IMG/VR virus record: IMGVR_UViG_3300020048_000110
Reading direction: 5' to 3' (one strand)
Origin: a virus
Length of the DNA stretch: 64,000 bases
Of the stretch, positions 1 to 61,356 are shown piece after piece (within the stretch, counting starts at the first letter, position 1; the number at the start of each line of letters is the position of its first letter). Below the pieces are notes generated by a model. The model was not told the DNA's origin. It did not search any database and saw only the letters and a program-made list of their open reading frames with translations. Position numbers and translations under genes: made by a program.

Positions 1-3000
1 CAAAATTAACATTTGAAGCACCAAATGAAAGTTTAGTATTCTGTAATTTTTTCAACGATACATACGAAGATTGTTCAGAAAACCCATTTGAAGGAATGGT
101 AGATGATAACGGATTTCCTATATGCAACACCCCAACAATAATAGGTACAGAATTAGTGGTATCAAGGGTAGTTGGAGAACAAACTACAAAAGTAGAAAAA
201 GTATTCCCTACGGAATATACAAGAATAACTACACAAAAGGGTTGCAACTTATATAAGAAAGATCCTAAGACAGACGATTTTATACAAGATCCGACTAACC
301 CATTAGGGTATGATCCAGACGCACCAATAGGTAGTCCTGCTAAACCAACTCCAATACCAGTATATTTAAGAGATTCTGATTTTACTAATGAAAATTGCAG
401 TTACGCTTCAGATATAACACAAATTGCAAAAGTAACATCAAATACCGCAATAGGATATTTCAACAACTATTACTTCGAAGATATAGCAAAAGAACTGCTC
501 ATAAACAAGACAGCTACTTTTGTAGATTATGTAGAAGAAATTACTTTTAAAGACGCAACTCCTGGACCAACTTCCGGAGATTTAACTGTAACTATAGGAG
601 TCTCTACATTTACACAAACCTATACTACAACCCCAACAGCATCAGCTTTAGCATTTTTTACAGCACATAAAGCCGCTATAGAAACATTAACAGGTGGAGT
701 TGTAACTATTTCTGGTCCAAAGGTAACTATAACCGATTCTACTCTTGCATATGTAGATTCTGTGATCACTACAGGTAACTTAGAGTATGAATTTAAAACC
801 AACGGTGGATTTACCAAAAAAATACATAAAGGGGCCCTTTGGTTCAATTTAGATTTTAACGGTAAAACAGACTTAATATTAGATATAGCTAAACAAAAAG
901 ATTCAGAAGGAGATGACGATATTTCTGTAGGAAGCCAAGTAAGAATTTCAATTTTTAAAAGCTGTTCAGATTCAAACGCAATATACAGCAAAGTTATAGA
1001 TTTAAATAGCCCTAGTATATACAAGATAAAAAAAGCTTCTAGTACATCATTAAATTTAGTTATTGAAGATGAAACAACAGGCTTAACACCAATAGTTATA
1101 ACTAATGGATGGAATCTAACTGAAAAGTATTATATAGCAGTAGACTGTCCTTTAGTAAAAACAGAAATAGATACAGATCCATTAGGAGTACAAATTACTG
1201 GAGGAATCCCACCCACATATACATATAACCGAGACTTTAAGGATGTATTCTATACATCACCTACAGATGGATGTTACACAATAACAAAAAGAGCAGTAGA
1301 GATAAAAAGAATAGATGTTACCTGGGATTCAATAGAGCTTGTAAAAAATATTAAAATGCAAGCTACCTGTACATTAAAACAACCAATACTACAAAACTGT
1401 AAAGCTATAGCCTATAGAAAAGGAGATTTTGCATATTGGGAAAGTACAGAAACTTATCCAGATAATAATGAACTTTACAATTCATCACTATTAGATATAA
1501 AACCGGCTGATCTAAGTGGGTTAACTATAGAAGAAATAGCAAAGTTTGAAAGTACTTTTACTGATGGTATAGAATTAGATGGAAATTATAAATGGAAAGA
1601 ATCTGAAAAAATAGAAGGAGATATATCAAGTTTACAACCAGTTGTTGACTATACTTGTAGACCGATAAGACACTTTAAATTTCCAGATAATAAAATTGCA
1701 CCATATACATACAACTCTTTACAAGTAAACTTTAATAAATCTGCTATTTTTCCATTAGGTATAACTTTGAATGAGAGTGTGATACTTAAATTTTTAGATG
1801 TAGCTGTTAAGAATGAGCTACTATCTTCAGAAGACAGAAATAAGATAAAAAGTTATGAAATTTTTAGAGGAGATCTTAATTTAAATAGAAGTATTGTAGC
1901 ATCTGGAATACTGTTCGATATGCGTAGTTACAAGGAAAATGAGAAGGATGTATTATATACAAACTATCCTTTTAACTCTTATTCAGATGACAAATTTAAT
2001 TTAGATAGTAGTAATAAGCCACTAGTAACTCCTAATTTTGGAGAGAGTAATTATAACTATACTTTCCATTCTCCAGAGACAGATTACTATAAACCAACAA
2101 TTCCTTCAGAACTATCTATACAAGGTTTCCTATTTGGAAACTCAAGAGGTAATGTAGAAGAAGTATTAAAGCATCCAAAATGGGTTATTTTAGGAGATGT
2201 AGCTAGATCTGATGCAGGTGATTTAGCAACGCTAGAGGTTTTTGCAGAAGTAACTATAATAATAGCTAATGCAGCTATACAAGCTTCTCATACTTATGAA
2301 ACTAGCTTTTTTGCTTTTGTAGCAGGAGCAGGAGGAGCTGCATCAACAACTTCAAATATAGCAGGAGCAACCACTTCTGGTATAGCTTTAGGAGCAATAG
2401 CTTTTCTTGAAATAGCAGAATCTGTTGTATATAAATGGGGAAAGTATAGATATGAGTGGCTTAAAATATTTAGAGATCTTGGAACTCCAAATAATTTTGC
2501 ATACTACTATCATGCAGAAGGCTTTTACAACTTTTTAAGAAATGATATACATACTGAAGGAGATAGTTTAAGAGGTTTAAATATAACCAAGTACATAAAA
2601 GACGCAAGGTATACTACTTTAAATGAAGTTACTCCAGAATCTATCACGATAAACAATATTGATAGAGAATATTCTGTATTTTTATCAACAGGAAAAAACA
2701 ATAGTATATCCTACCCGGACTACTACAAAAAATACGATAGCCTTCCAAATAACTCTAGTATTACATATTTAGGAGAAAATGGCATAGCGTCATCAAAAAA
2801 GAGTCCAGAAATAGTTAAACCAATTGCTTCACCATATGTACATTTAAAAAACTACATACCATCACAACATGGAACAATAAACTCTATAAAGTGGTTATCT
2901 ACTGGATTTAGAAGTAATTTTAATAATACTGGATGTTTATCTATTTTTGGAGGAGATACATATATTTCAAGACATACAGTTAAAAGGAAAAAACCTCAGT

Positions 3001-4925
3001 TCTTAGTTACAGCAATGGAACAAGCAGATCTGACACCTTTCAATTACTATTTCTATAATAATATTGGAGATAACCCAAAGTTTTATGTTAGTTATGAAAT
3101 ATCTAAGGATTTTGAAGCAGACAGTCAATTTTTTCCAGATATTCAGTATAATTATACTTTTGATAATGCGAGAGTTGTAAACTATTTTGGAGTGGATTTT
3201 ACGGCTAGTGGAAAGTATATTTCACCACCTAATAAGTTCTATTTGTATTATTACGGAGTACCAAACTATTTAGTTGAAACACGTATAAATACAAACTTTA
3301 GATACGCAGGTAAAGAGTTAAGAGATAACTTTTTTCCGCAAGTAGGAGATTTATCAAAATGGACACAAGAAAAGAATGTTCCTATAAATGAACCAGAAAC
3401 ATTTAACTATAACAATAGCTATTCAAAACAGACTAGTTTTGTAAGATCTAGAGTTTTCTCAAACACCTACAAAAAGGAAATAAACGATAAGACTCAAAAT
3501 TTACCAAACGGAGTAATCTCTAGTCTTTCAGATTCATCAGAGAATTCTACTATGGATCCTTGGTTAATATATAGGCCATTTGATTTATTTGAGTTCCCAA
3601 CTAACTTTGGAAAACTTAAAGACATTATAGACATTGAGAGCCAAGCAGTTTTAGCCAGATTTGAAAATACTTCTATGCTATATAATAAAGTAGATAGTAA
3701 GATAGATGACGGATCAACACCTACTTCTGCTTTCTTTGGAGGATCATCTTTATGGCAAAGAAGACCTATAACTTTTAACAATACGGATTTAGGTTATGGA
3801 GGTACACAAAACTTTGCAAAGATCTCTTGTGAATATGGACATTTTTGGGTAGATGCAAAAAGAGGACAAGTTCTTACAGTACAACCAAATGGAGGTACAA
3901 TGGAAGAAATATCTTCAGTAATAGGAGGTAAACCTAGCGGAATGAGAAACTGGTTTAAAGAACACTTACCATTCAAAATTCTAAAATACTTACCACATGT
4001 TAATACAGATAACCCATACAACGGAGTAGGTATAACAATGGGATGGGATAGTAGATACAGAAGAGTTTTTATAACTAAAAAAGATTACATTCCAAAGAGT
4101 TGTGTTGACTACGTACAAGGTAAAGGATTTGTATATAAACCTGCAGATTGTGATGGAAGTCCTACAGCGGAGCCAATCGCAATAGAAGCTGGAGATCCTC
4201 AATATTTTGAAGATGTATCATGGACAGTTGCTTACTCTCCAGTAATAGGTTCTTGGTTGAGCTACTACAGTTTCACACCAAACTATTACATAGGGCATAA
4301 CAACTACTTCCAAACAGGAATAAATAGTATAGTAAATACAAATGAGAATGGTCTTTGGTCACACCTCTTAACAAACAAATCTTACCAAGTTTTTTATGGT
4401 AAAAAAGAAGAGTTTATTTTAGAGTATCCAGTACAAGGAGATTATACTGAAAAGTATATAAACAACATAGAACTTTGGACTGAAGCAAAGAGATACCATA
4501 ATGATTACGACTACTACACTAATCCTGGGATTACGTTTAACAAGTCTGTACTCTATAATACAATACATTGCTCAGGAACGCTTAATCTAGTGCCGTTAAA
4601 AACGAACTATATGAGTGCAAAAGACTTCCCTAAAACTAACCTAAATAACACACAGGATATAGGTATAAGAACAGGAGGAACTTTAATCTGGACTTATGAT
4701 TATTTTTATAATAGAGTAAAGAATGGTACTAGTAATATACCATTTTTAATACAAGATTCAAATCAAATTAAGAAATATGTGAACAGTCAGATAGTGAGTT
4801 TTAAAGGCAAACCTCTACTTGAAAGGATGGTAGGAGATTGGTTTTTAAACAGACTTACCTACGATAAAGATAGTAGGTATAGTTTAAGTTTCATATTTTC
4901 TATCACAGATACTTCTAAAATTTAA
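1..4925 (+). CDS. Giant virion, tail or ejected structural protein. The ORF is open to the window edge, so it is 5'-partial and longer than 1640 aa
   Basis: The frame starting at nt 3 has no stop upstream of the ATG at 96. The protein is rich in N, T, Y and S and looks beta-rich, with no recognisable catalytic motif. It is the first of nine consecutive giant + strand ORFs. Confidence 0.6.
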   Translation, partial: KLTFEAPNESLVFCNFFNDTYEDCSENPFEGMVDDNGFPICNTPTIIGTELVVSRVVGEQTTKVEKVFPTEYTRITTQKGCNLYKKDPKTDDFIQDPTNPLGYDPDAPIGSPAKPTPIPVYLRDSDFTNENCSYASDITQIAKVTSNTAIGYFNNYYFEDIAKELLINKTATFVDYVEEITFKDATPGPTSGDLTVTIGVSTFTQTYTTTPTASALAFFTAHKAAIETLTGGVVTISGPKVTITDSTLAYVDSVITTGNLEYEFKTNGGFTKKIHKGALWFNLDFNGKTDLILDIAKQKDSEGDDDISVGSQVRISIFKSCSDSNAIYSKVIDLNSPSIYKIKKASSTSLNLVIEDETTGLTPIVITNGWNLTEKYYIAVDCPLVKTEIDTDPLGVQITGGIPPTYTYNRDFKDVFYTSPTDGCYTITKRAVEIKRIDVTWDSIELVKNIKMQATCTLKQPILQNCKAIAYRKGDFAYWESTETYPDNNELYNSSLLDIKPADLSGLTIEEIAKFESTFTDGIELDGNYKWKESEKIEGDISSLQPVVDYTCRPIRHFKFPDNKIAPYTYNSLQVNFNKSAIFPLGITLNESVILKFLDVAVKNELLSSEDRNKIKSYEIFRGDLNLNRSIVASGILFDMRSYKENEKDVLYTNYPFNSYSDDKFNLDSSNKPLVTPNFGESNYNYTFHSPETDYYKPTIPSELSIQGFLFGNSRGNVEEVLKHPKWVILGDVARSDAGDLATLEVFAEVTIIIANAAIQASHTYETSFFAFVAGAGGAASTTSNIAGATTSGIALGAIAFLEIAESVVYKWGKYRYEWLKIFRDLGTPNNFAYYYHAEGFYNFLRNDIHTEGDSLRGLNITKYIKDARYTTLNEVTPESITINNIDREYSVFLSTGKNNSISYPDYYKKYDSLPNNSSITYLGENGIASSKKSPEIVKPIASPYVHLKNYIPSQHGTINSIKWLSTGFRSNFNNTGCLSIFGGDTYISRHTVKRKKPQFLVTAMEQADLTPFNYYFYNNIGDNPKFYVSYEISKDFEADSQFFPDIQYNYTFDNARVVNYFGVDFTASGKYISPPNKFYLYYYGVPNYLVETRINTNFRYAGKELRDNFFPQVGDLSKWTQEKNVPINEPETFNYNNSYSKQTSFVRSRVFSNTYKKEINDKTQNLPNGVISSLSDSSENSTMDPWLIYRPFDLFEFPTNFGKLKDIIDIESQAVLARFENTSMLYNKVDSKIDDGSTPTSAFFGGSSLWQRRPITFNNTDLGYGGTQNFAKISCEYGHFWVDAKRGQVLTVQPNGGTMEEISSVIGGKPSGMRNWFKEHLPFKILKYLPHVNTDNPYNGVGITMGWDSRYRRVFITKKDYIPKSCVDYVQGKGFVYKPADCDGSPTAEPIAIEAGDPQYFEDVSWTVAYSPVIGSWLSYYSFTPNYYIGHNNYFQTGINSIVNTNENGLWSHLLTNKSYQVFYGKKEEFILEYPVQGDYTEKYINNIELWTEAKRYHNDYDYYTNPGITFNKSVLYNTIHCSGTLNLVPLKTNYMSAKDFPKTNLNNTQDIGIRTGGTLIWTYDYFYNRVKNGTSNIPFLIQDSNQIKKYVNSQIVSFKGKPLLERMVGDWFLNRLTYDKDSRYSLSFIFSITDTSKI

Positions 4926-4929
4926 TTAA

Positions 4930-4961
4930 TTTGGTAAAGTCTAAAATTTTAAGTAATTTTG
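4930..4961 (+). promoter_or_regulatory. Bacteroidetes-type sigma promoter upstream of the 1352-aa ORF
   Basis: TTTG at 4930-4933, a 20-nt spacer, then TAATTTTG at 4954-4961. This matches the -33 TTTG / -7 TAnnTTTG consensus and abuts the terminator hairpin. Confidence 0.5.
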
Positions 4962-4992
4962 CCCCTACATTGAGATAGTGTAGGGGTTTTTT
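4962..4992 (+). terminator. Rho-independent terminator after giant ORF 1
   Basis: Perfect 8-bp stem cccctaca / tgtagggg with a 9-nt loop, followed by TTTTTT. Confidence 0.7.
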
Positions 4993-5003
4993 AAATTAAT
5001 AAT

Positions 5004-8000
5004 ATGCCAATAGATAGAGAAGAATATTTAAGAAGGATAAAAGCCGCAGAAAGCGGAGGAAATCCTTATGCTAAAAGTCCGTTAAGTTCAGCATCTGGAC
5101 TTTACGGGTTTACAAAAGGTGCTTTTGAAGGACTAGGTTACAAGTGGGAAGACAGATTCAACCCTAAAGTACAAGAAGAGGCAGCAAGAAAACTTACAGA
5201 CCAAACTTATAACTACCTACAAAAGAAAGGTATTAAGGACCCAACATTTACAGATTTGTATGGAGCACATTGGTTTGGACCACAAGGCTACACAAAATTA
5301 GCTAGTACTCCAGACAACACGAGTATAGCAAACGTATTTTCAAGTGGTGTGTTAAAAGCAAACCCTAATCTGCTTAAAAAAGACGGTACACCAAAAACAG
5401 TAGGTGAAGTAAAAGGACTAATAGCACAAAAAGTAGGTGGCCAACCAACACAAGATAACTCTTCAATTGGCTATACAGACTATACGTTAGGGCTAGCACC
5501 TTTGCCTGGACAAATGGCAGGGTACAGAAGAGATGTAACTGAAGAAGTTAGTAATGATCCTTTTTCAAAATTAGCAGAAAAGCAACAAGAAGAAGATTTT
5601 ACAAACGAGGTTAGACAACAACAAGAACAACAAGAACGACCACAAGTTCAACCTAATCCACTATACGCTGCAGAGAACTACCAACTACAACAATTCCAAC
5701 CTACACAATACCAAGGACAGATTTTTTCTGAGGGATTTTTCCAAGAGGGTGGTATAAAAGGCAGTACTGGAAATAACCCAAAAAGATACAATGAATTAAT
5801 TATTGATACAAGTAATAAACAGGTAATGGATACCTTAAATAAGAAGTTCAATACCTTACATTACAAAAGTAAAATGTCATGTACTGCAGGATCTTTAAAT
5901 TGCTTAACTGATTTTGTGCAACCTATATTAAATTCAGACTCTGTTAGAACCTTGACACAACAAAATACTAGCAAGTATAAGATTCCAAGTAAACCTTACT
6001 CTTGGATTGGAGATACATATGTACCTAACAATTCAATAGATGCATGGGAGATACATAGCCAATTATCTGGAGAAGGTTTAGGAACTAACTTAATTAATCC
6101 TAAAAGTAAACTAACATACAAGAAAGATAAAAAAGGCACTAATATAAGTCAAATACCAGATCAATTAGACTATAAGAACTTACCTGTTGGTACAATTTTA
6201 GGACAAGGTGACAGTTCAAATGCCTATACAGACCCTAAATACGGCACTAAATCAAGACATGCCATGACTATAATAGGTTATGATAAAAAAGATGGTGAAC
6301 CTTTAGTCTATGACTACGGTGAAATAAGAAGACTATCTGATAATACAGGTATTTTAAAAAGTGCTCCTATAAACAATGTTACAATACCTAAAGGATATGA
6401 GAAATACACAATGGGTAATTTAGTAAGAGAGTATAATAATTACTCAACTAAATTAGGGTACGGTAAAAGTGTTCCTGTAAATTATAATTCAAAAAAAGAA
6501 CACATCCTAGCAATTCAAAATGGTGTTAATGATGTTAAAGATCAAATAGGTTTTGATTATAATATACCACAAACTGTAATAAATAAAATGGCACTTATGT
6601 TGCCAGGACTAGCATACCAAGAAACAGGTATTAACAACAATGAAAAACTTACTAAATCCGCCATAGCTGACAATATAGTAGGAAACTATGTAGGTAAACC
6701 TGGATTGAAAATCATAAAAAATACAGCTAATTTTATTGGTAATACATTTAAAGAAGAAGGCTCTAGAAAAAAAGGATATGAGTTAGAGATAGAAGCTTAT
6801 AAAAAGTATCCTAATGATCCGGCAAAAAGAAAAGCATACCAAAATCAATTAATAAATGAGAATAGTAATTTAAAAAATACTAACTACGAAGAGTTAACAT
6901 CATCTGTAGGACCATTCTCTGTTAAAAATATCCCTGCATATTCTGAAAATAAGCTGAAGGTTAAAAAAAGCGACATGTTTGGTGTTGATTTCAGCAATAA
7001 GTCAGAGTTAAAAAACGGTTCAAAAGTAGCCTTAAACATTCTAGCAGAAAATTATGCTAGAGCAAAGAAACAAAATCCTAATTTAGATCCAGATGAGTTA
7101 ATTGATTTAAGCTTAGCATCTTATAATAGTGGATCTAAATTAAAAGATAAGCGTTATATACAGTATTTTATAAATAAAGATACACGCACACTTAACGACA
7201 CATACTTAGAAAAGATTAAAAACTTTAAGTTACAAGATGGCGGAGAATGGTTTGGAGAAACTGTATTTGAAAAAGAACAGCCTCTAATGGCCGCTAAAGA
7301 TACCCAAGAGTATCAAGATGCAATGACAGGTATGATGAAGTCTAAAATAGGTATGGGTAACGCTTTAGGTAGCCCATCTATTAAAAGGATGTCAAGAGCT
7401 ATGCCTAAGACAGGCATGACTCCAGAAGGTATGGGTACACATTATATGGGATCTGTTGATAATTATGCTAGACCATTTTTACAAGATACAGGAAAAGATC
7501 AACTAGAATATTTTGAAAATCCAAGACCTTCTAGAGAAGACATTAGATTTAATTCTCCAGAAGAAGCACAATACTTTGCAGAACGTTACAAAGAAGTGGC
7601 ACCTATGTCTACAACTTACAGTGGTTTACAAGAATATCAAGATGGTGGATTAAAAGCTAAAGCCGATAGAGCATACGCTCAAGAAATATACGATCAAATA
7701 CGCCCTAGTGACTATACATCACTTAATAACTATGCTAGATATATTTTTAGTGTAAAACGTGATGATTATGATGATGCAAGAAGCGAGGAGGCATTTAAAC
7801 AATACTTAGGTCTAAATGACAAACCGAAGTATTTAAGTCCATCAAAATACGCACCGTCAATAAAAGCAAAAGGCAAAGAGGGTGAATATTATAGAGTAGA
7901 CCCAGAATTAGAGAACGACATATTTCATTCATACAAAGATAAAGTAAAATTGAATGAAGTAGTTCCAGTAGATGAGATCAATATAAAAAGTGAATGGCCT

Positions 8001-13397: not shown

Positions 13398-13410
13398 AAA
13401 GTTTAATTAA

Positions 13411-13442
13411 TTTGCATATAAGTAAAAAAAGAGTTACTTTTG
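13411..13442 (+). promoter_or_regulatory. Bacteroidetes-type sigma promoter upstream of the 899-aa ORF
   Basis: TTTG at 13411-13414, a 20-nt spacer, then TACTTTTG at 13435-13442. A TTTGCATAAAATT motif is shared with the 31.5 kb intergenic region. Confidence 0.55.
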
Positions 13443-13459
13443 CATAAAATTATTAATAA

Positions 13460-16159
13460 ATGGCTAACGCATATTCAGCACCGATAAATTACGGAAGATA
13501 TATAGAACATGATAGTGTCCAACTAATAGGACAGGTACAAACAGCACTACAACAAAGATATGATGCAAATACCGCTAAGGTAGATGAAATGATATCTATG
13601 GTGTCAAATGTTCCATTGATAAGAGAAGAAGATAAAAAGTACCTTGGAGAAAAAATCCAAGGTCTTTTGTCTATGGTTGATGCCAATTCAAAAATAGATC
13701 TTACAAGCAATAACATTACTAGACAAATAACTAACTACATTAGTACAGCAATAGACGGCAATGTAAAAAAACAAGTAGCTAATTCTCAAAAGATAATGTC
13801 TTTCCAAAAAGACATGGAAGACTTACTCACTAAAGACCCAAAATTATACAACGAAGGTAATGTAGCTTATGCTCAAGATAAAGCTGGATACTCTGATTAT
13901 ATTAGTGGAAAAACTAACGACTTAGGTAACCTTTCCTACAATCCATACGTAGACTATAAAACTACAACTATGGAGAAAGCTATAAAACTAAAGCAGTTAA
14001 AAGGTGATCAAGAGATAGAGACCGTAATGAATGACGAGGATGGGAATCCTACAATCAAGCAAAAAGTTAAAATCAGCGGTTTAACACCAGAGGAAATTAT
14101 CAAATACTTTCCAGAGATGTTGACAGCACAAGAAGAAAAACAGATGGCTATAGATGGTTGGAATTCATTAAGAGGAGCTAAACCAGACCAAATAAAAAAA
14201 ATAGCAGATGACTACTTTAGCAAAATGAAGTCGGGTGTATCTGAGAAAATAAAAGAATTAGATAATATTATAAATAGCGGAAATACTTTTTCTCAAGCAA
14301 AAAGAGAAGAAGCAGCTAGGATAAAAAAACAATACGAATCAGACTTAACAAACATAGGGAGTAAAGAGAAAAACGTAGATAAGTCTAATCCAGAAGCAGT
14401 TGGTTATATGGTCAATAGGTCTGAGTTTATGAATTCTGCAACAGGTTTATTCTCAGGAAGACAATCTGTAACTTATGAAACAAATGAAGTATACTTTAAG
14501 AAGCAAGATTTAGAAATAAAAAGAGAAGAGTTAGCTCAAAAGAAAATAGAGCACGCTGCTAAAATGAAGAAGGAGTATGGACAAGCCGCTGATGGATCTA
14601 CTTTACCTTCAGCAGATTCTGGAAGTTTTGTAAGCTCTGCTATTGCAAATCAAGAAGTTGCACCTTCAGATTTTTATGCAACTACAAAAGAAGCTTTTAA
14701 TAAAGCATATGATACAATTGTATCTACAGGAGAAGCAGTATATAATGACCCAACTATAAACGCTAGTAATAAAGATGCTTATAAAAAAGGTTTAGAGAAG
14801 TTTAACTATACCATAAAAGGTGGAAAGGTTGTTTCAACACTACCAGAAGGTCAAAATAAAAATTCAAAAGCAGCAGCTATAGAAATAGCTTTTCATGAGA
14901 GTGGTATAAGTAAAATTAATAATGGTTACGATAAAGTAATTAGTGACGCTAGTGAAGTAAGATCTCATTTATCAGATGCTTTAGTGAAAGCAGAAAAAAA
15001 TATAGGAAAAGATTTTGACACAGATGATTATGTAAGTAGTTTTGAAGATGTATATAAGAAAATGAATTTCCAAAACACAGAAGGAGGATTCTTATCATCT
15101 CTATACAAAGATACTCCTGAAGAAAAAGCAAAGTATTCTCAAAAATTTAAATCTTTTATAGACAGCCATGGAGGAATAGAAGGTATTAAAAAAAGAGCAA
15201 AAACTGATAGAAGTCTTTTAGTAACTATGAAAAACTTATGGGATGAAGCAGCAGATAACTTAAAAGAGGTTACTAACATATTTGCTCCAGACCCAACAAA
15301 AACTACAAATAAAATAGGAGAAAGCTTGCAAAACTCAGGTATAAAAAATTATGTTGATGCTAAAAAAAGCGTAAATATAACTACTGAAGATTCAAGAGCT
15401 AAATTAATAAACATGTTGCCTCAACAAATTAGAGATATCAAAGGGAATGTGACTGCTTCAGGAGTAGGAGATTTTGACCCTAAATCAGGTATGACTATAG
15501 AAAAAGGAACTGATTATTATGATATCATACAAGACAGAGGTACCAAAACAGACATTAAAGGAAGTACAGTAGGGGTACCATCTGCAACAGCTAGAGTATA
15601 CAAAGGTAGTGAAGCTTACAAGTATATAGAAGCAAACACTGAAAAACCAGGGTATAAAATAGATGTTAAAGGAGTAAATGACAGCTATAGAATAAAACCT
15701 CTAGTAAAACCAGAGTTTTATAGCAGTAATGATAGGGAGATTGTATCAGAAATGAAGGGTAAATATAATGACCATGTGAATAATGAAGTAAAAACAGCTT
15801 TAACAAACATGGTAGGTATTAACCCTACAGTATTTTTAACTAAAGAAAGTACAAGAGCCTACATGGAAAATATGTTTAATGGTAGAATAGAGCCTGCTAA
15901 AATAGAGATTTTATTAAATAAGATAGAAGCAAATTTTAGTAAATATAAAGTAGAGCTTTTACCAAATAGAAGTAAAGATTGTTGGTCAGTAAGTTTTAAA
16001 TCTCCATACGCAGCTTCTGCTTATATTAGTAATTTTAACGATAAGCCAGAATTAAATTCTGATTTTGCGTATGTTTTAAAAACTATGCCACAAATACCTA
16101 TTATGATAGAAGTTGTAAAAGTATTGAATAGAGATGTAAAAAATATAGATAAGATATAA
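13460..16159 (+). CDS. Large hypothetical structural protein, 899 aa
   Basis: Long ORF preceded by a promoter. No motif recognised. Confidence 0.5.
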   Translation: MANAYSAPINYGRYIEHDSVQLIGQVQTALQQRYDANTAKVDEMISMVSNVPLIREEDKKYLGEKIQGLLSMVDANSKIDLTSNNITRQITNYISTAIDGNVKKQVANSQKIMSFQKDMEDLLTKDPKLYNEGNVAYAQDKAGYSDYISGKTNDLGNLSYNPYVDYKTTTMEKAIKLKQLKGDQEIETVMNDEDGNPTIKQKVKISGLTPEEIIKYFPEMLTAQEEKQMAIDGWNSLRGAKPDQIKKIADDYFSKMKSGVSEKIKELDNIINSGNTFSQAKREEAARIKKQYESDLTNIGSKEKNVDKSNPEAVGYMVNRSEFMNSATGLFSGRQSVTYETNEVYFKKQDLEIKREELAQKKIEHAAKMKKEYGQAADGSTLPSADSGSFVSSAIANQEVAPSDFYATTKEAFNKAYDTIVSTGEAVYNDPTINASNKDAYKKGLEKFNYTIKGGKVVSTLPEGQNKNSKAAAIEIAFHESGISKINNGYDKVISDASEVRSHLSDALVKAEKNIGKDFDTDDYVSSFEDVYKKMNFQNTEGGFLSSLYKDTPEEKAKYSQKFKSFIDSHGGIEGIKKRAKTDRSLLVTMKNLWDEAADNLKEVTNIFAPDPTKTTNKIGESLQNSGIKNYVDAKKSVNITTEDSRAKLINMLPQQIRDIKGNVTASGVGDFDPKSGMTIEKGTDYYDIIQDRGTKTDIKGSTVGVPSATARVYKGSEAYKYIEANTEKPGYKIDVKGVNDSYRIKPLVKPEFYSSNDREIVSEMKGKYNDHVNNEVKTALTNMVGINPTVFLTKESTRAYMENMFNGRIEPAKIEILLNKIEANFSKYKVELLPNRSKDCWSVSFKSPYAASAYISNFNDKPELNSDFAYVLKTMPQIPIMIEVVKVLNRDVKNIDKI

Positions 16160-25318: not shown

Positions 25319-25332
25319 AAAGTTTTAATCTA

Positions 25333-25364
25333 TTTGGTAATTACAGAAATAATCCATAAATTTG
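25333..25364 (+). promoter_or_regulatory. Bacteroidetes-type sigma promoter upstream of the 2014-aa ORF
   Basis: TTTG at 25333-25336, a 20-nt spacer, then TAAATTTG at 25357-25364. Confidence 0.55.
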
Positions 25365-31435: not shown

Positions 31436-31466
31436 AGGCTGTCAAAAAAAGGCAGCCTTATCTTTT
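31436..31466 (+). terminator. Rho-independent terminator after the 2014-aa ORF
   Basis: Stem aggctgtc / ggcagcct (8 bp with one G-U pair) around an aaaaaaa loop, followed by tatctttt. Confidence 0.6.
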
Positions 31467-31480
31467 AATTAATTTTTTTA

Positions 31481-31504
31481 TTTGAAAAAAAAGGTTTAAA
31501 TTTG
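31481..31504 (+). promoter_or_regulatory. Putative promoter for the 1915-aa ORF. The -7 element is canonical and the -33 is weak
   Basis: TAAATTTG at 31497-31504. The only TTTG upstream lies 12 nt away instead of about 20. It shares TTTGCATAAAATT with the 13.4 kb promoter. Confidence 0.35.
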
Positions 31505-37272: not shown

Positions 37273-37277
37273 AAGAA

Positions 37278-37317
37278 AACCCCTAAGGACCTAAAAATCC
37301 AAGGGGGTTATTTTTTG
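37278..37317 (+). terminator. Rho-independent terminator ending the + strand block
   Basis: aacccc ... ggggtt stem followed by attttttg. Confidence 0.6.
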
Positions 37318-37335
37318 CTTAGAAATTACTAGACA

Positions 37336-37379
37336 TAAAAAATCCCTGCTTTCACGAGAGTATCGTTACTAACAGGGAT
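37336..37379 (-). terminator. Rho-independent terminator ending the - strand array. It faces the + terminator
   Basis: 7-bp stem atccctg / cagggat. On the - strand it is followed by TTTTT (the plus-strand a-run at 37337-37341). Confidence 0.55.
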
Positions 37380-37384
37380 CTTTA

Positions 37385-38683: not shown

Positions 38684-38818
38684 TTATTTATTTTAGTTGG
38701 TTCAAATTTACAATCCATGCAAAGTAGCACAAATTTGTTGTCTTCTTTTTTCTTGTTAAAAATCTCTTTTAAATCCATAGTGTAAAATTATAAAAAATTA
38801 TTCAATCTACCAAAAAGG

Positions 38819-43126: not shown

Positions 43127-43851
43127 TATTTTTTAATTATATTTTCAGTTATTAAAATAGTTCTTACTTTTTGTACTAATTCTTCTATTGTACCATCGTT
43201 ATTTATTGTGTAATCAAAATCAGCTTTATCAAGAGATGTTTCTGATGGATGTAATCTTGCAATATTTTTACTCTTTTCAACAGGTCTTGTTACCCTAATG
43301 GTAATACCCCCTCTTTTAACTATGGCTTCCATCTCATTTGGAAATCTCAAATCCGTAATGATCCAACTAGGGTATTCTCTATATTTAGGATTATATTTAT
43401 CTTCTTTAGAAACAGGAATCATTTTTCCACCAATACATTTATAATCAGCAAACAAAGCATTTACCCAAACATTTATATGTAAACCATCACGCATTGCATC
43501 TGTACCAAGCTTTTGTAGAAATTCTCTATATGTCATTTTATGATGATGGTCGACTTTTCCAATACCTTCTAAAAGAGTACTATTAAAATAATCCCACTCT
43601 TCTCCCATATTAAGTTTCTTAAACTCTTGATCTTCAAAACTTTCTGTATCAATTCCTGTGAGAAGTGAAGCAGTTTGTTTTAACTTTCCAGCAAACTTCT
43701 TAATTTCAAAGTTGGGGCCTTCATTTGTAGCACACAGCTTTTGAATAATCTCTCCTACGGTATCTTTACCTGACCCGATCCTACCACTAATCCCAAAGAG
43801 ATTAGGTGGATAACTTCTGTTCTGTTTTTCCATGCTGTTAATTTTTAACAA
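43126..43851 (-). CDS. P-loop nucleotide kinase, dNMP-kinase-like
   Basis: GISGRIGSGKDT matches the GxxGxGKDT Walker A typical of T4 gp1-type dNMP kinases. Confidence 0.5.
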   Translation of the reverse strand: MLKINSMEKQNRSYPPNLFGISGRIGSGKDTVGEIIQKLCATNEGPNFEIKKFAGKLKQTASLLTGIDTESFEDQEFKKLNMGEEWDYFNSTLLEGIGKVDHHHKMTYREFLQKLGTDAMRDGLHINVWVNALFADYKCIGGKMIPVSKEDKYNPKYREYPSWIITDLRFPNEMEAIVKRGGITIRVTRPVEKSKNIARLHPSETSLDKADFDYTINNDGTIEELVQKVRTILITENIIKK

Positions 43852-43954
43852 AGATATAAATAAGTTTTTGTTACTGCAAGTTTTTGTTCAAAAATTTAAC
43901 TAATTTTTTTAATCTATTTTTTATTCATAATTTTGTGAACAAATAAATTATGCT

Positions 43955-44404
43955 ATGTGTGATAAAATAAATTGCTCAAAATGTGGGCTAGACAAAGAAA
44001 AAGGCTTTTTTAGGAAAAGGCCATCATTAAAAAGAGGATACCAGTCTTGGTGTAAAGATTGTGAAAGTTTTGCTAGTAAATCTAGATATATCCCAAAACC
44101 TAAAAAAGAGGTCATAGAAAAAGAAAAAAAACTCTCCGAAAAAAAGAGGCAATTAAAGATAAGATATGATTTGTCTTATGAAGAATACTTGTTAATGTAT
44201 GAAAAGCAAGAAGAAAAATGCCTAATATGTGAAAAAAATAAAGTATTAGGTACTAAAAAAGGGTTATTTGTTGACCATTGTCATACTACAGGTAGAGTTA
44301 GAGGATTACTATGCTCTAGATGTAATACTTTACTTGGTTATATAGAAAACAGTGATAATATATTAGATAACATAAAAAAATACTTAACAAAAAAACCCGA
44401 CTAA
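43955..44404 (+). CDS. Endonuclease VII-like (T4 gp49 family, HNH-related) nuclease
   Basis: CLICEKNKVLGTKKGLFVDHCHTTGRVRGLLCSRCNTLLG matches the DH.H...G.VRGLLC..CN..LG signature. It is the only + strand gene inside the - array. Confidence 0.75.
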   Translation: MCDKINCSKCGLDKEKGFFRKRPSLKRGYQSWCKDCESFASKSRYIPKPKKEVIEKEKKLSEKKRQLKIRYDLSYEEYLLMYEKQEEKCLICEKNKVLGTKKGLFVDHCHTTGRVRGLLCSRCNTLLGYIENSDNILDNIKKYLTKKPD

Positions 44405-47235: not shown

Positions 47236-47257
47236 ATAATTTAATTTTTTTGCAAAG

Positions 47258-54687: not shown

Positions 54688-54998
54688 CTTATTAATTTTT
54701 CTACGTTTTCTAATTGATCCATTAACCTATGACGCTCATCTGTTAAACTTTCTACATCTCTGTGTAATTCATTACCCCAATCCCTAAGTTCCTTATTAGC
54801 ATCTCTGATATCTTCTATTAAAGAGAATACTATTTCAAAATCGTACTCATTATCATCGTTTAAAAAGTCTCTTTTAAATCCTTCTAAGTACATTAATAAC
54901 TCGTTAATACTCGGACAAGTATTTTTTACTGGTGCTTTATCAATCATAATTTCTAATTTTATTTCAGCAAAGATATAATTAAAATACAATATACGCAA
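54684..54998 (-). CDS. Hypothetical protein, 104 aa
   Basis: ORF. Confidence 0.45.
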   Translation of the reverse strand: MRILYFNYIFAEIKLEIMIDKAPVKNTCPSINELLMYLEGFKRDFLNDDNEYDFEIVFSLIEDIRDANKELRDWGNELHRDVESLTDERHRLMDQLENVEKLIR

Positions 54999-55021
54999 GA
55001 AAAAATAAAAAAATTTTTAAA

Positions 55022-55048
55022 AATAAAAAACCCCCCATTTCTGGAGGG
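55022..55048 (-). terminator. Rho-independent terminator on the - strand after the RNR large subunit gene
   Basis: cccccc / ggaggg stem with one G-U pair, followed by a T-run on the - strand. Confidence 0.45.
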
Positions 55049-55078
55049 CTAAAAACAAAAATAATAAATGATAAAAAA

Positions 55079-57704: not shown

Positions 57705-57727
57705 TTTTTGTTTTTTATAATTAGAGA

Positions 57728-57760
57728 TAAAAAAAGTACCTCCTAATTAAAAGAGGTACT
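57728..57760 (-). terminator. Rho-independent terminator on the - strand upstream of the RNR operon
   Basis: Perfect 8-bp stem agtacctc / gaggtact with a T-run on the - strand. Confidence 0.6.
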
Positions 57761-57793
57761 CTGATCTTAAAGTGCAAAGATATAAAAAATATA

Positions 57794-58105
57794 TTATTTT
57801 TGCAAATTGGTTAAATCTTTTATTAATAATTTAACCTCTTGTATTTTCATTAAAATACCTTCAATACTTTCGACATCTTCTATTTCTAAAGACAAAAACT
57901 TGTTAAGACACTGCTCTACAGTACTATAGTAGTAAATATCTTTAACAACATAATCTACTATTTTACCTGTTTTAACTTTGTCTACGACCTCTTCTTTCTG
58001 TTTTGTATGTACTGCTACTAAAGAGCAACCGTCTCTCGATGTATTTATCGAGTAATTTTCATTAATTTTTATCATGGTTTTTGTTTTTAATTTGTAGTTG
58101 GCCAA
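57794..58105 (-). CDS. Hypothetical protein, 103 aa
   Basis: ORF. Confidence 0.45.
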   Translation of the reverse strand: MANYKLKTKTMIKINENYSINTSRDGCSLVAVHTKQKEEVVDKVKTGKIVDYVVKDIYYYSTVEQCLNKFLSLEIEDVESIEGILMKIQEVKLLIKDLTNLQK

Positions 58106-58143
58106 ATCTACACTTTTTATACATCATTTGGCTGATGTTATTG

Positions 58144-58215
58144 TGGTCCCGGAGGATTACGATACCCCGACCTTGTTCTTATGAGGAACCTGCTCTTCCG
58201 CTGAGCTACGAGACC
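58144..58215 (-). tRNA. tRNA-Met (CAU)-like, 72 nt, with a degenerate T-arm
   Basis: The - strand reads GGTCTCG-TA-GCTCAGCGGAAGAGC-A-GGTTC-CTCATAA-GAACA-AGGTC-GGGGTATCGTAATCCTC-CGGGACC-A. The acceptor stem has 7 pairs including one G-U. The D-arm is perfect. The anticodon is CAU. The T-stem has a closing T-T in place of G53-C61. Confidence 0.45.
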
Positions 58216-58527
58216 AAAGTAGGGAGATTTCGCTCTCCCTAGGCGTGGTTAAGCTGCAATCCTTTGCACCCCACCAATGTTAAAAACGTTGCCGTTTGTG
58301 TTTAAAGTATATTCTCCTTATTACCTACTTATTGCCAGTCAAAACCAGTCACCCCCATAAAAGATTGTTTAAAGTACAACCAGTAAAACTTATAAGGTCA
58401 ACTGATAAATCAGTAGACTCCACCAGACTGTTTCTTAATTCAAGCATACAGACAAACAAACGTGGAGGTGCCGAGAGTCGAACTCGGGTGTTGGTCAACT
58501 TCAATAATATATCAACGAACTACTTCG

Positions 58528-58675
58528 TAATCAGGACAGGACTCGAACCTGTAAATAAGAGAGGTCACTTAACACTAATGGGACTCATACCATTACCCTC
58601 TGTATTGCCATACCGTGTTGCGTCTACCACGAGCAGGGACACCCCACTCCTTTCGCCACCTGATTATTTACTTGT
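58528..58675 (-). ncRNA. Oversized tRNA-like element E1, about 148 nt, homologous to E2
   Basis: 5' AATCAGG pairs with 3' CCTGATT. It has the GGTGGCG...GTGGTAGACGC D-arm with an inserted hairpin GGGGTGTCCC. At the 3' end, ACAGG-TTCGAGT-CCTGT forms a T-arm. Confidence 0.4.
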
Positions 58676-59007
58676 CTTTCCAAGTTGTCAATCCGTTTTA
58701 ATCTCTCGGTGGACCTCCCATCAACCTACATACAGATTACAGTTGTAGATATTTTATCTATAATCCTCTGTCTTTCCAGTGTCCACAACTTATGTGTTAG
58801 CCTCACACATCAATCACTAGGTTGTCAGCTTTGCAACCAAGACAGGATTTGAACCTGCAACCCTTTCTGCCTTTCGACAAAATGTTATACCTCTTTAACT
58901 TACTTGATCTCCAGGTACTCTATAAGCTACTACCCTTGGAGCTACGAATCGTATCATTGAATCTATTCTAGACTAGAGACAACAACATCTTATAGAGTTT
59001 TATTTCG

Positions 59008-59123
59008 TGATTGAGACAGGACTCGAACCTGTAATTCATACTGTTAACTATATGGTGTGTTTATACTTCACACTCTGCTTTTACCCTCTTCGGGTGTGTG
59101 TCTAGCCGTTTCACCACTCAATC
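59008..59123 (-). ncRNA. Oversized tRNA-like element E4, about 116 nt
   Basis: Acceptor GATTGAG / CTCAATC (7 bp). D-arm TG-GTG-AAACGGCTAGA-CAC. A 66-nt insert with hairpins ACCCGAAGAGGGT and GTGTGAAGTATAAACACAC. T-arm ACAGG-TTCGAGT-CCTGT. Confidence 0.4.
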
Positions 59124-59217
59124 ATTTCCCCTCGGGTGAGGGCACTCGTCAGTTTCGGTAGCATCCCCTAGACTACTCTAATTAAATCAAAGTAGATGGG
59201 GTCGAACTGTAAATACC

Positions 59218-59499
59218 TTACAAAGGTTTTTTAGAACCTATTTCATATTCACTTGGAGTATTGATCAACTTCAATAAGATGTATATATACTCTGCTTCAC
59301 TATAATCCATTCTATTTTTCTCTGCAAATTTAGTTAGAAGACTTAAACCGTTACCGTCATCCTCTATTTGAAATGCGATCCTATCTCTTATATGACTTGA
59401 CCAACTACTATCATTAGAAAAGTACAGTGTGTGTTTAGTATCATCTACTATTTCATAGTCAAAATCATATCTACCATCTACAAAAATCTGCTGTTTCAT
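59218..59499 (-). CDS. Hypothetical protein inside the tRNA-like cluster. Start set at the internal Met, because the ORF track N-terminus overlaps element E2
   Basis: MKQQIFVDGRYDFDYEIV... The longer ORF would run into the tRNA-like gene. Confidence 0.4.
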   Translation of the reverse strand: MKQQIFVDGRYDFDYEIVDDTKHTLYFSNDSSWSSHIRDRIAFQIEDDGNGLSLLTKFAEKNRMDYSEAEYIYILLKLINTPSEYEIGSKKPL

Positions 59500-59519
59500 T
59501 TTTATCTGTTTTAAATTTG

Positions 59520-59668
59520 TTGTCAGGACAGGATTCGAACCTGCAATTGTGGATTTCCAAGTAAGGACTCGTATGGGCTTTTTCCATTCCACACCCACGA
59601 TGAAACTATCCTTATCTTTTTGCGTCTACCACGTCAGGGAGAAACCCCTAACCTTCCGCCACCTGACT
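59520..59668 (-). ncRNA. Oversized tRNA-like element E2, about 149 nt
   Basis: AGTCAGGTGGCGG-AAGGTTAGGGGTTTCTCCCTGACGTGGTAGA-CGC ... GCAGG-TTCGAAT-CCTGT-CCTGACA. The D-loop carries a GGGG..CCC hairpin as in E1. It is alignable with E1 over its full length. Confidence 0.4.
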
Positions 59669-59675
59669 GTAAAAT

Positions 59676-59894
59676 TTACTTTTTAAAAGAAAACTTTTGC
59701 CCTAAAATCTCCAATCTTTGACCTAAAACTTGCAAATACTCATTCATCAATCTTGATTGTTTGTAAAGTAAATCTTTGTTTTGACGGTCTAAATCAACAA
59801 ATGCTTGAGTACGCATAAAATCGTTTAAGGCATTTGTCTTTATTGCTAATTCCTGTGCTTCAATAAGAAGTCTTTCGTAAAATGATTCTCCCAT
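59676..59894 (-). CDS. Small hypothetical protein, 72 aa, between tRNA-like genes
   Basis: ORF. Confidence 0.4.
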   Translation of the reverse strand: MGESFYERLLIEAQELAIKTNALNDFMRTQAFVDLDRQNKDLLYKQSRLMNEYLQVLGQRLEILGQKFSFKK

Positions 59895-59915
59895 TTTTAT
59901 TTAATTTAAAGTTAG

Positions 59916-60002
59916 TAGTCAGAACAGGATTTGAACCTGTATTGTTGAATTACCCAGCTTCAACTGCATAAGTATAGCGTCTACCAATTCCGCCACCTGA
60001 CT
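59916..60002 (-). tRNA. Class-II-type (Leu-like D-arm) tRNA or tRNA-like gene, 87 nt. I could not fold a canonical anticodon arm
   Basis: AGTCAGG-TG-GCGGAATTGGTAGACGC matches the bacterial tRNA-Leu D-arm, which I recall as GGUGGCGGAAUUGGUAGACGC (not checked here). It has a GTTGAA/TTCAAC hairpin with a 9-nt loop, T-arm ACAGG-TTCAAAT-CCTGT and acceptor 3' strand TCTGACT-A. Confidence 0.5.
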
Positions 60003-60009
60003 ATTTTTC

Positions 60010-60550
60010 GCTAATGTTAAAAACTGATTCAATCCTCCTAAAACACATTAACTTGGTACTTACTCTATATAGGCTCCCCAATCCTTTATATATCTTTACC
60101 TGAAACTTCTTTGGGTTGTTGATTGACCACTCCCACTTACTCAAGTAGTTTTTATTTAGCACCCTTTCTTATAGCTTACCGAGTTATCAGTTACGGAGCT
60201 TGTATAAGAGTAGGGTCACGTAGCTATACTAAATGTAAGGGTCTCTTACTAACTACTTGCTGAGAACTCATTTGTGTTAGTCTTTACTAGTTGTCGCAAC
60301 AACCTTGTAGCCACTCTATTTTCCTTTCTCAAGGGAACAACACATCTACCATTACTGATAGTATCTTTATGTAAAGTAGTCGCTCGAGGGCCTTTACTCC
60401 TATGGAGACTCAAGTGTTATTTTTAAGTTACCGACTTTTTACAAAGGATCAATGTTTAGCCTTTTATTAAAGCATTCTAGCTACATTGGGAGAACTGCCT
60501 TTCCCACGTTATTTAAGAGTATATCTTGCAGCGTATCTCACTAGGTTATG
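60010..60550. ncRNA. Candidate structured non-coding RNA: 540 nt with no ORF over 30 aa on either strand, and more GC-rich than its surroundings
   Basis: No ORF in six frames. It lies next to the tRNA-like cluster and is flanked by - strand genes. Confidence 0.25.
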
Positions 60551-60552
60551 CT

Positions 60553-61356
60553 TTATTTTACATTCTTTACAAACGGTAAACTACTTCCGGCAAATGTTGT
60601 TGGTAATACACCATTCCATTTGTTGATTGCTTTTTCTTGCATAATCTCTGCTGTTAAACCTCTTGAACGGATAACCAACTGTTCGGTTTTTAGTAACTCT
60701 AATTCATTCTTCTTACGTTGCTCTGAAATCTGTTGATCAAGTACTGAGATATTAGTATTTACTTCATTCCTACTATCAATCTTAGCTTTTACTTTGCTAG
60801 AAAAATCTAAATTCAAACTGAAACTCACTAATTCTAAACCAGCTTTATCAAATTCTTTCTTAACAATATCTTGAACATATTGTTCAAATTTTAAACTGCC
60901 ACCATTAACCATTAATTGGTCAGTAGTATAACCTCTTGAAGCTTCTTTAATAATATCATAAATTCTAGGCTCTAGTACGTTATCTTGTAGTGCAGTCATA
61001 AAATCTGATCCTGATCCTAACCTTGCGTTTTGGAATACTACATCTACTACTCTATTTTCCATTACTTTAAAAGAATAAATAGGTTTTGATGTGAATGCGG
61101 TATTATCTGCCGCTTTGATCTGCAAAACTCTGTCTGTACCCTCATCAGTAGTAAACTGCCCTCTTTGTTCCCAGGCCGGTACTTGAAATAACTCTGTGCC
61201 CGGTGGGAAGGTGCTAACCTTACCTTGTTGTTTGGTGTAATCAGATTTACCATTTTTACCATAATCTTCCATTAATACACCATAATAATTTGGTGCCACT
61301 CTCTCACAAGAAGTTAGTAATACAACTCCTAAAACCAATAATGCTAATTTTTTCAT
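60553..61356 (-). CDS. SPFH (band-7 / prohibitin-like) domain lipoprotein
   Basis: Signal plus lipobox LLTSC. The central region is consistent with the SPFH fold and has a C-terminal coiled coil (EQRKKNELELLKTEQL). Confidence 0.45.
   Translation of the reverse strand: MKKLALLVLGVVLLTSCERVAPNYYGVLMEDYGKNGKSDYTKQQGKVSTFPPGTELFQVPAWEQRGQFTTDEGTDRVLQIKAADNTAFTSKPIYSFKVMENRVVDVVFQNARLGSGSDFMTALQDNVLEPRIYDIIKEASRGYTTDQLMVNGGSLKFEQYVQDIVKKEFDKAGLELVSFSLNLDFSSKVKAKIDSRNEVNTNISVLDQQISEQRKKNELELLKTEQLVIRSRGLTAEIMQEKAINKWNGVLPTTFAGSSLPFVKNVK

Follow-up and report, generated by a model that had tools for sequence, protein, structure and literature searches.

Bacteroidetes-type promoters in the giant-gene block of an uncultured phage, one of them apparently fused to a terminator hairpin

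Promoters of the Bacteroidetes primary sigma factor (sigma-A Bfr) consist of a -33 element, TTTG, and a -7 element, TAnnTTTG. In flavobacteria the consensus of the -7 element has been revised to TAHHTTTG (PMC6847099), and transcription start site (TSS) maps of Flavobacterium johnsoniae and F. psychrophilum place this box at -12 to -5, with 4-5 nt between the box and the start (PMC6847099, PMC9723704, PMC7366714). Among phages, middle promoters have been mapped by primer extension at g070, g075, g108, and g110 of the crAss-like Cellulophaga phage phi14:2, whose middle and late transcription is rifampicin-sensitive and thus depends on the host RNA polymerase (RNAP). In vitro, such promoters are transcribed by the bacterial holoenzyme on its own, and the motif given for the middle promoters is extended and tripartite, with an A/T-rich upstream block, a -35-like block, and a -10-like block (Drobysheva et al., bioRxiv 10.1101/2020.03.07.982082). 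Here we analysed a 64,000-nt stretch of viral DNA (the window), IMG/VR virus record IMGVR_UViG_3300020048_000110, in which a block of giant genes carries predicted promoters of this kind. One of them, at 4922-4992, shares a base of its -7 box with the terminator hairpin of the preceding gene.

The block consists of nine very large open reading frames (ORFs) of 601-2060 aa on the + strand, spanning 96-37272; ORF1 is truncated, its reading frame being open at the left edge of the window (1-4925). It contains exactly four intergenic gaps, the remaining junctions overlapping or abutting, and each gap holds one site, sense-oriented and facing the next ATG. The ORF1-ORF2 gap is 78 nt long and has the following features:

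4922-4933, + strand: extended -33 element of the ORF2 promoter, TTAATTAATTTG, with TTTG at 4930-4933 and the ORF1 stop codon TAA (4923-4925) inside it
4954-4961, + strand: -7 box of the ORF2 promoter, TAATTTTG, whose G4961 is shared with the first pair of the hairpin
4961-4987, + strand: terminator hairpin GCCCCTACATTG-AGA-TAGTGTAGGGGT, stem 4961-4972 / 4976-4987, from terminator scan and folding
4966-4967, + strand: predicted +1, T4966 or A4967, inside the 5' arm, placed by the flavobacterial box-to-TSS geometry
4987-4992, + strand: T6 tract directly 3' of the stem, followed by the ORF2 ATG at 5004

A first-pass annotation of this DNA had noticed that the -7 box adjoins the 5' arm of the ORF1 terminator, and the hairpin does begin at the last base of the box, G4961. 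The stem has 12 pairs, of which the outermost is a G.U pair (G4961-T4987), and its only four G-C pairs, the clamp, join C4962-C4965 to G4983-G4986. The intact hairpin (RNA from 4961) folds with -16.8 kcal/mol (z -4.59), and none of 200 shuffled sequences folded as well. Since 4-5 nt separate box and start in flavobacteria, transcription would begin at 4966 or 4967 and leave the clamp, at promoter positions -4 to -1, untranscribed. Folding falls to -3.0 kcal/mol for RNA from 4966 (z -0.77) and to -1.6 kcal/mol for RNA from 4967 (z 0.07). By analogy with the flavobacterial geometry, these values uphold the earlier suggestion that a transcript from this promoter would start inside the stem and be unable to form the hairpin.

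In the arrangement that we propose, promoter positions -5 (G) and -4 to -1 (four C residues) would at the same time supply the 5' arm of the terminator with its G-C clamp. Polymerase coming out of ORF1 would transcribe the hairpin in full, with the T6 tract behind it, and terminate, and polymerase initiating at the embedded promoter, at about 4966/4967, would produce clamp-less RNA that forms no hairpin and would continue into ORF2. Geometry, folding, and conservation, all of them computational, thus speak for the terminate-and-restart arrangement envisaged in the first-pass annotation. Features, positions, excess over expectation, conservation, and folding energies were computed, and from them we infer the start site, actual termination, and the polymerase used. 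On this sequence-based footing, we judge the whole chain, from the promoters to the bypass of the terminator, to be somewhat more probable than an even bet, and we are less confident than that in the bypass being a selected function.

Like a canonical intrinsic terminator, the hairpin has a G+C-rich stem (6-12 pairs), a loop (3-10 nt), and U-rich sequence immediately beyond the stem, comes after a stop codon, and is one-directional. However, its 5' arm coincides with part of the next unit's promoter, from -5 to about +7, and in several relatives the U run lies 4-5 nt from the stem. Rfam gave no family at the junction (best hit rteR, 24.9 bits against a gathering score of 72 bits). In text searches, no relevant earlier report of transcription starting within a terminator stem turned up, although one may exist.

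Because a megablast of positions 1-25000 against GenBank phages gave no match, relatives were found via protein searches. They include IMG/VR and metagenome contigs of 120-145 kb at 40-60% protein identity, here given L numbers. The close-clade set comprises 15 distinct junctions at the 3' end of ORF1 homologs (the window, L003, L004, L005, L007, L008, L009, L017, L018, L022, L023, L145, L147, L149, and L150), the relatives being at ~50-60% protein identity. The promoter is present at all 15 junctions. In 12 of them the first pair of the hairpin is the G of the box (offset 0), and 11 of these 12 also have a U-rich tail. Loop length ranges from 3 to 10 nt, and the lower stems and the spacers differ among the sequences; the few compensatory changes comprise a C-G to A-U replacement (L023) and A-U/U-A swaps. 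Intact hairpins of the relatives fold with -10.6 to -15.1 kcal/mol, and those cut at the predicted start with 0 to -4.3 kcal/mol. The same fusion occurs at a different junction in L010, with a C-G to U-A change and -4.4 kcal/mol when cut at the predicted start.

The position of the hairpin was also scanned at 62 distinct predicted promoters at any junction, its start being measured from G(-5) within 60 nt:

offset 0: 10 promoters
offset 11-14: 6 promoters
offset 27: 1 promoter
no hairpin within 60 nt: 45 promoters

As a background control we took 135 unrelated IMG/VR occurrences of TAATTTTG-N19-TAATTTTG, which were among the matches listed and mostly AT-rich. A hairpin of -8 kcal/mol or better stood at the offset in four of these 135 listed matches, one of the four being a member of the family.

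In more distant relatives (35-39% identity), the ORF1 homolog is followed by a terminator and then by a TTTG-N20 promoter. This order was found by automatic scan in L157, L158, and L159 and by eye in L155, L160, L162, L165, and L167; the gene downstream is not always recognisable as ORF2. Since these phages hold terminator and promoter as separate elements, both functions seem to be wanted at the end of ORF1, and the clade of the window appears, from the sequences, to have compressed the two into one element.

The other three gaps of the block carry the following features:

13403-13442, + strand: promoter of the ORF5-6-7 unit, TTAATTAATTTG-N20-TACTTTTG, 18 nt 5' of the ATG at 13460
25325-25364, + strand: ORF8 promoter, TTAATCTATTTG-N20-TAAATTTG, 21 nt 5' of the ATG at 25385
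31436-31466, + strand: terminator after ORF8, GGCTGTC-A7-GGCAGCC + TTATCTTTT, preceding the ORF9 promoter in the conventional order
31465-31504, + strand: ORF9 promoter, TTAATTAATTTT, N20, TAAATTTG, 21 nt 5' of the ATG at 31525

Three matches to TTTG-N20-TAnnTTTG had been reported in this block, and their coordinates are correct (+ strand, 4930-4961, 13411-13442, and 25333-25364). At a fourth site, reported at 31481-31504, the -7 box is real (TAAATTTG, 31497-31504), but the -33 element had been misassigned, since the TTTG at 31481-31484 leaves a spacer of 12 nt. The in-register (N20) -33 of the ORF9 promoter is TTTT at 31473-31476, with TTAATTAA just upstream, and relatives have a proper TTTG there. 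The four -7 boxes (TAATTTTG, TACTTTTG, TAAATTTG, and TAAATTTG) all satisfy TAHHTTTG, and the distances from the G of the box to the next ATG are 43, 18, 21, and 21 nt for ORF2, ORF5, ORF8, and ORF9. Promoters also sit at the homologous junctions of relatives at ~50% protein identity: that of ORF5-6-7 is conserved in L007/L021 (22568-22625) and L009 (14823-14889), and the ORF8 homolog of L268/L270 is preceded by a similar site (2010-2079). The ORF8 terminator is kept in L266-L272 as AAGGCTGCTGAAAAGTAGCCTT followed by the T-run AACTTTTTT. By operon structure, the four promoters would head the transcription units ORF2-4, ORF5-7, ORF8, and ORF9 and so serve eight of the nine giant ORFs, where at least four giant genes had been suggested before.

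A scan of the whole window added an exact match that had been missed, at 57806..57775 on the - strand. The exact motif TTTG-N20-TAnnTTTG therefore occurs four times, against 0.94 expected, and none of 100 dinucleotide shuffles reached four; all four matches are intergenic and point at the following gene. Promoters of this kind are not special to the giant-gene block, because at least 16 intergenic sense-oriented -7 boxes are spread across the window. In total TAHHTTTG occurs 112 times, 90 of these in coding sequence and 16 in intergenic, sense-oriented positions. A TTG stands 19-21 nt upstream of 9 of the 16 intergenic sense boxes versus 4 of the 90 coding ones; among non-redundant relatives the corresponding figures are 34 of 60 versus 47 of 630. 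A consensus scan for sigma-70-type sites found 70 against 71.6 expected, and promoters of the Escherichia coli type were set aside for this lack of enrichment.

Alignment on the box separates the sites into two classes, one before giant genes (+ strand) and the other before replication genes (- strand). The giant-gene class has an extended 12-nt -33 element, TTTAAYTAATTT(G), which ends 21 nt 5' of the -7 box and had been overlooked previously. The replication-gene class has (A/G)CTTGC at -33 and mostly TATCTTTG as its -7 box. Exact TTAAYTAATTT occurs in four copies in the window, all of them 21 nt upstream of a -7 box; on its own the motif shows no significant enrichment (4 versus 1.45 expected; 9 of 100 shuffles reach four). 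The composite TTAAYTAATTT-N21-TAHHTTTG, with up to two mismatches, has seven matches versus 0.36 expected, six of which are sense-oriented and intergenic. These matches are the four sites of the giant-gene block, 43896-43935, 57814..57775 (-), and one coding match that is probably due to chance. Furthermore, the extended element holds its register in relatives though TTTG itself moves, with N19 there versus N20 in the window. Sites outside the giant-gene block include:

43896-43935, + strand: promoter of the endonuclease VII gene, TTAACTAATTTT...TAATTTTG, fifth of the giant-gene class
38703-38733, - strand: replication-class promoter TTTG-N19-TAAATTTG, 20 nt 5' of the ATG at 38683
43849-43879, - strand: replication-class promoter CTTGC-N-TATCTTTG (TTG-N20)
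box G at 47253, 54968, 61755, and 63913: further replication-class promoters with CTTGC / TATCTTTG

The endonuclease VII gene (43955-44404; Pfam PF02945, 9.3e-22) is the lone + strand ORF within the - strand replication block. In T4, endonuclease VII belongs to the late functions. Since the giant-gene class also drives this gene, the extended -33 class is probably a late class. This class and the conserved offset-0 fusion are what is new here, the component elements being already known.

Several features liken these sites to the sigma-A promoters of Bacteroidetes. The boxes read TAHHTTTG and have no G at -10/-9, TTG or TTTG lies 19-21 nt 5' of the box across an AT-rich spacer, with 20 nt falling within the published range, and the sites are close before genes without a Shine-Dalgarno sequence. 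They differ in that the spacer is nearly always 20 nt (19 bp is reportedly optimal at the F. johnsoniae ompA promoter), that the TTTAAYTAATTT block of the giant-gene class is outside the host consensus, and that the -33 element is strong in the window, whereas it is weak genome-wide in F. johnsoniae. Compared with phi14:2, the layout TTG-N20-TAnnTTTG is the same, as read directly upstream of g070, g075, g108, and g110 (four of four), with an A-rich block farther upstream, and the promoters of both phages precede genes for virion-packaged giant proteins. However, phi14:2 is a distant phage, with 21-28% identity in one giant protein; its promoters have CTTG or TTTG without TTTAAYTAATTT, and the upstream blocks of the two phages differ in sequence. 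No promoter-terminator fusion was seen in the scanned half of phi14:2.

Judged by sequence, the four giant-gene sites belong to the primary-sigma promoters of Bacteroidetes, are ordinary in kind, and match those of phi14:2, and it is highly probable that they are functional host-type promoters. By analogy with phi14:2, where promoters of the same layout serve rifampicin-sensitive transcription, it is most likely the host RNAP that reads them. There is also indirect support for a Bacteroidetes host, because the nearest cultured relatives infect Cellulophaga, Shine-Dalgarno-like sequences precede only 5 of 54 genes in the window, and the leaders are A-rich, with A at -3 in 37 of 54. Such A-rich leaders with few Shine-Dalgarno sequences are the Bacteroidetes pattern (PMC6847099). 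Both proposals of the first-pass annotation, a Bacteroidetes host and host-RNAP transcription, are thus supported, if indirectly.

The nearest cultured relatives by protein are the Cellulophaga baltica phages phi4:1 and phi17:2 (28% identity across the whole of ORF9); crAss-like phages gave weaker protein matches to the window. The exact TTTG-N20-TAnnTTTG motif is absent from the giant-gene gaps of phi4:1. Two of these gaps in phi4:1 (L002; 4326-4371 and 9279-9329) and one in the metagenomic relative L014 (15072-15127) have TAnnTTTA-C boxes (TATATTTAC, TACATTTAC) with TTG or TAG 20 nt upstream, perhaps a lineage-specific form of the -7 element. As its gaps hold TAnnTTTA instead of TAnnTTTG, phi4:1 is uninformative on the fusion.

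The exact match on the - strand belongs to a ribonucleotide reductase gene, where the promoter lies ahead of an intact terminator:

57775-57814, - strand: promoter of the reductase small subunit, TTAACCAATTTG-N20-TATCTTTG, the fourth exact TTTG-N20-TAnnTTTG match
57726-57762, - strand: terminator in the reductase leader, GAGTACCTC...GAGGTAC + T7, -16.3 kcal/mol, z -3.97

In the window this hairpin begins 13 nt past the -7 G and lies wholly within the predicted leader. The order of promoter and terminator is conserved, with compensatory changes, in seven relatives (L225-L229, L256, and L260, ~1390-1500), where the hairpin starts 11-14 nt after the box and has a T7-8 tail. In L230 and L257 it begins 2 nt past a TATCTTTA box, so that the geometry differs between clades. 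The reductase leader could be an attenuator, an antitermination-dependent unit, or the source of a short RNA of ~45 nt. A promoter closely followed by a terminator ahead of a gene block is also the layout of the Q-type system lambda PR'-tR', which the reductase junction (57814..57726) resembles most closely. At 4961, however, the stem starts within the promoter and the clamp is upstream of the predicted start, so that, differently from the Q-type systems, the promoter's own RNA would be unable to form the terminator.

Several observations weigh against the terminate-and-restart reading. The 3' arm is gone from three close relatives (L008, L018, and L145) that keep the promoter, and the U tract is missing in L023, which implies that the terminator is dispensable. 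Covariation is modest, and several of the relatives are close to each other. Before the ORF5 homolog of L011, L014, and L016, a longer hairpin after a TAATTTCG box keeps -10.9 to -12.6 kcal/mol when cut at the predicted start, and RNA from the reductase promoter would include the full terminator, so that a promoter before a terminator does not always imply bypass. In addition, the extended -33 element suggests a possible phage factor in place of the unmodified host holoenzyme. The hairpin might instead act on the promoter's own RNA, either as an attenuator that needs an antiterminator or a signal, as in lambda PR'-tR', or as the source of a short RNA. This would suit the conserved reductase junction, with the same promoter type and an intact hairpin and T7 13 nt on, as well as the hairpins of L011, L014, and L016, which mostly survive the cut. 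At 4961, however, the stem begins in the -7 box, and a start 4-5 nt past the box excludes the clamp; a start at or before -5 would be needed, which is unseen in the flavobacterial TSS maps. Nor does the window have a second -7 box upstream, since the upstream TAATTTTG of the relatives is TTAATTTG here. No antiterminator gene, Q-like gene, or Q-type binding element was identified, although no search was aimed at one, and we consider action on the promoter's own RNA distinctly unlikely. Mere genome compaction is another explanation, with the hairpin stabilising or marking the 3' end of the ORF1 mRNA or being a processing site, and its position being unselected. The shortness of the gap, the ORF1 stop codon within the -33 element, the three relatives that lost the hairpin and kept the promoter, and the variable position of the reductase-junction hairpin relative to the box would all fit. 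However, ten hairpins of the unbiased scan begin at exactly offset 0 and none at 1-10, and the offset is kept though loops, lower stems, and spacers have diverged and while the U-rich tail persists in nearly every hairpin, which makes compaction alone very improbable.

A further possibility is that the promoters are not read by the unmodified host holoenzyme, TTTAAYTAATTT being the target of a phage late activator, a sigma-appropriating factor, or a phage polymerase. In T4, MotA and AsiA act at middle promoters. The extended element occurs specifically before the giant-gene units of the + strand and before the endonuclease VII gene, stays in register despite the shift of TTTG from N20 in the window to N19 in relatives, and is replaced by CTTGC at replication-gene promoters; the middle promoters of phi14:2 were also described as extended. 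However, both classes have a host-type -7 box and spacing, comparable phi14:2 promoters are rifampicin-sensitive and transcribed in vitro by the bacterial holoenzyme alone, and no candidate factor was identified in the window. Moreover, part of the element coincides with the U tract of terminators lying upstream, and some of its richness in T could stem from this. We regard such a phage factor as unlikely. As the pattern is AT-rich and the genome has 32% G+C, chance matches might be suspected from the many coding TAHHTTTG boxes and from the lack of significant enrichment of TTAAYTAATTT alone. The shuffles, the intergenic sense-only position, the fixed distance to the ATG, and the conservation at homologous junctions refute this as far as sequence analysis reaches and leave it a negligible probability. 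Two candidates were tried and rejected: an upstream promoter P1 using the relatives' first TAATTTTG as its -7 box, because the window has TTAATTTG there and no -33 ahead of it, and an N4-like DNA-hairpin promoter for a virion polymerase, because the element heads virion-protein genes and has a full host-type -33/-7 pair.

Taking the terminate-and-restart reading together with the reductase leader, the position of the start relative to the stem may be a design variable of this clade. Offset 0 after ORF1 would give a terminator-immune restart, or insulator, of ~70 nt, offset 11-14 before the reductase would give an attenuated or antitermination-dependent unit, and TTTAAYTAATTT would be the target of a phage late factor. 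We put this joint reading forward tentatively and doubt that it holds in all its parts. The ORF1 junction and the reductase leader offer a natural experiment on how the placement of the start would decide whether the terminator is seen. Should the fusion function as proposed, it would be a natural insulator of very small size, with stop and restart within ~70 nt, that could be reused in the engineering of Bacteroides and Flavobacterium, where such parts are few. The transcription map, with its promoter classes, operon boundaries, and terminators, provides testable predictions for uncultured phages of ~120-145 kb with giant virion proteins.

Further features of the window concern its genes and their relatives. 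The intergenic share is only 6.6%. Several giant ORFs match PHROG families of "virion structural proteins", and ORF2 has an N-terminal lytic transglycosylase domain (Pfam SLT, 20.8 bits, just under the cut-off of 21.3 bits). The last ~310 residues of ORF1 are a separate ORF in most relatives (L005, L007, L023, and others), located 10-26 nt 3' of an ORF of ~2000-2700 aa; in the window both are joined in frame into a single ORF. From 37385 on, the - strand encodes replication and nucleotide-metabolism genes, including DNA polymerase, a DnaB-like helicase, thymidylate synthase, and both ribonucleotide reductase subunits.

In the virion RNA polymerases of crAss-like phages, the catalytic site is recognised by a DFDxD motif. 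ORF5 (13460-16159) has a motif of this kind, DFDTD, at residues 518-522, and the C-terminal third of ORF9 resembles crAss-like phage proteins annotated as an RNA-polymerase subunit. ORF9 lacks the DFDxD motif and was not called the polymerase. PDB sequence searches with ORF9 and ORF5 gave no match.

Two other regions resemble terminators. The convergent gap at 37273-37384, between ORF9 (+) and a 432-aa exonuclease-like gene (-), contains two G+C-rich hairpins with T runs, read by eye from the - strand sequence only, which resemble terminators of converging transcripts. At 54990-55063 (-), a -7-like box, TATTTTTG, without a -33 element lies 5 nt 5' of a strong terminator (AGCCCTCC...GGGGGG + T6), which precedes a proper CTTGC-N20-TATCTTTG promoter. 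The TATTTTTG box is probably a chance T-rich match, and its geometry resembles that of the fused element at 4922-4992.

The region 58000-60600 (-) is richer in G+C (0.38) and contains at least five T-arm-like repeats, GGTTCGAxTCCTGTC, with long, structured-looking spacers between them. ARAGORN called two tRNAs in this region (58143-58215, Met; 59915-60002) and Rfam three (58834-58909, 59008-59123, and 59916-60002), one of which is 116 nt long. The repeats may be unusual or interrupted tRNA genes.

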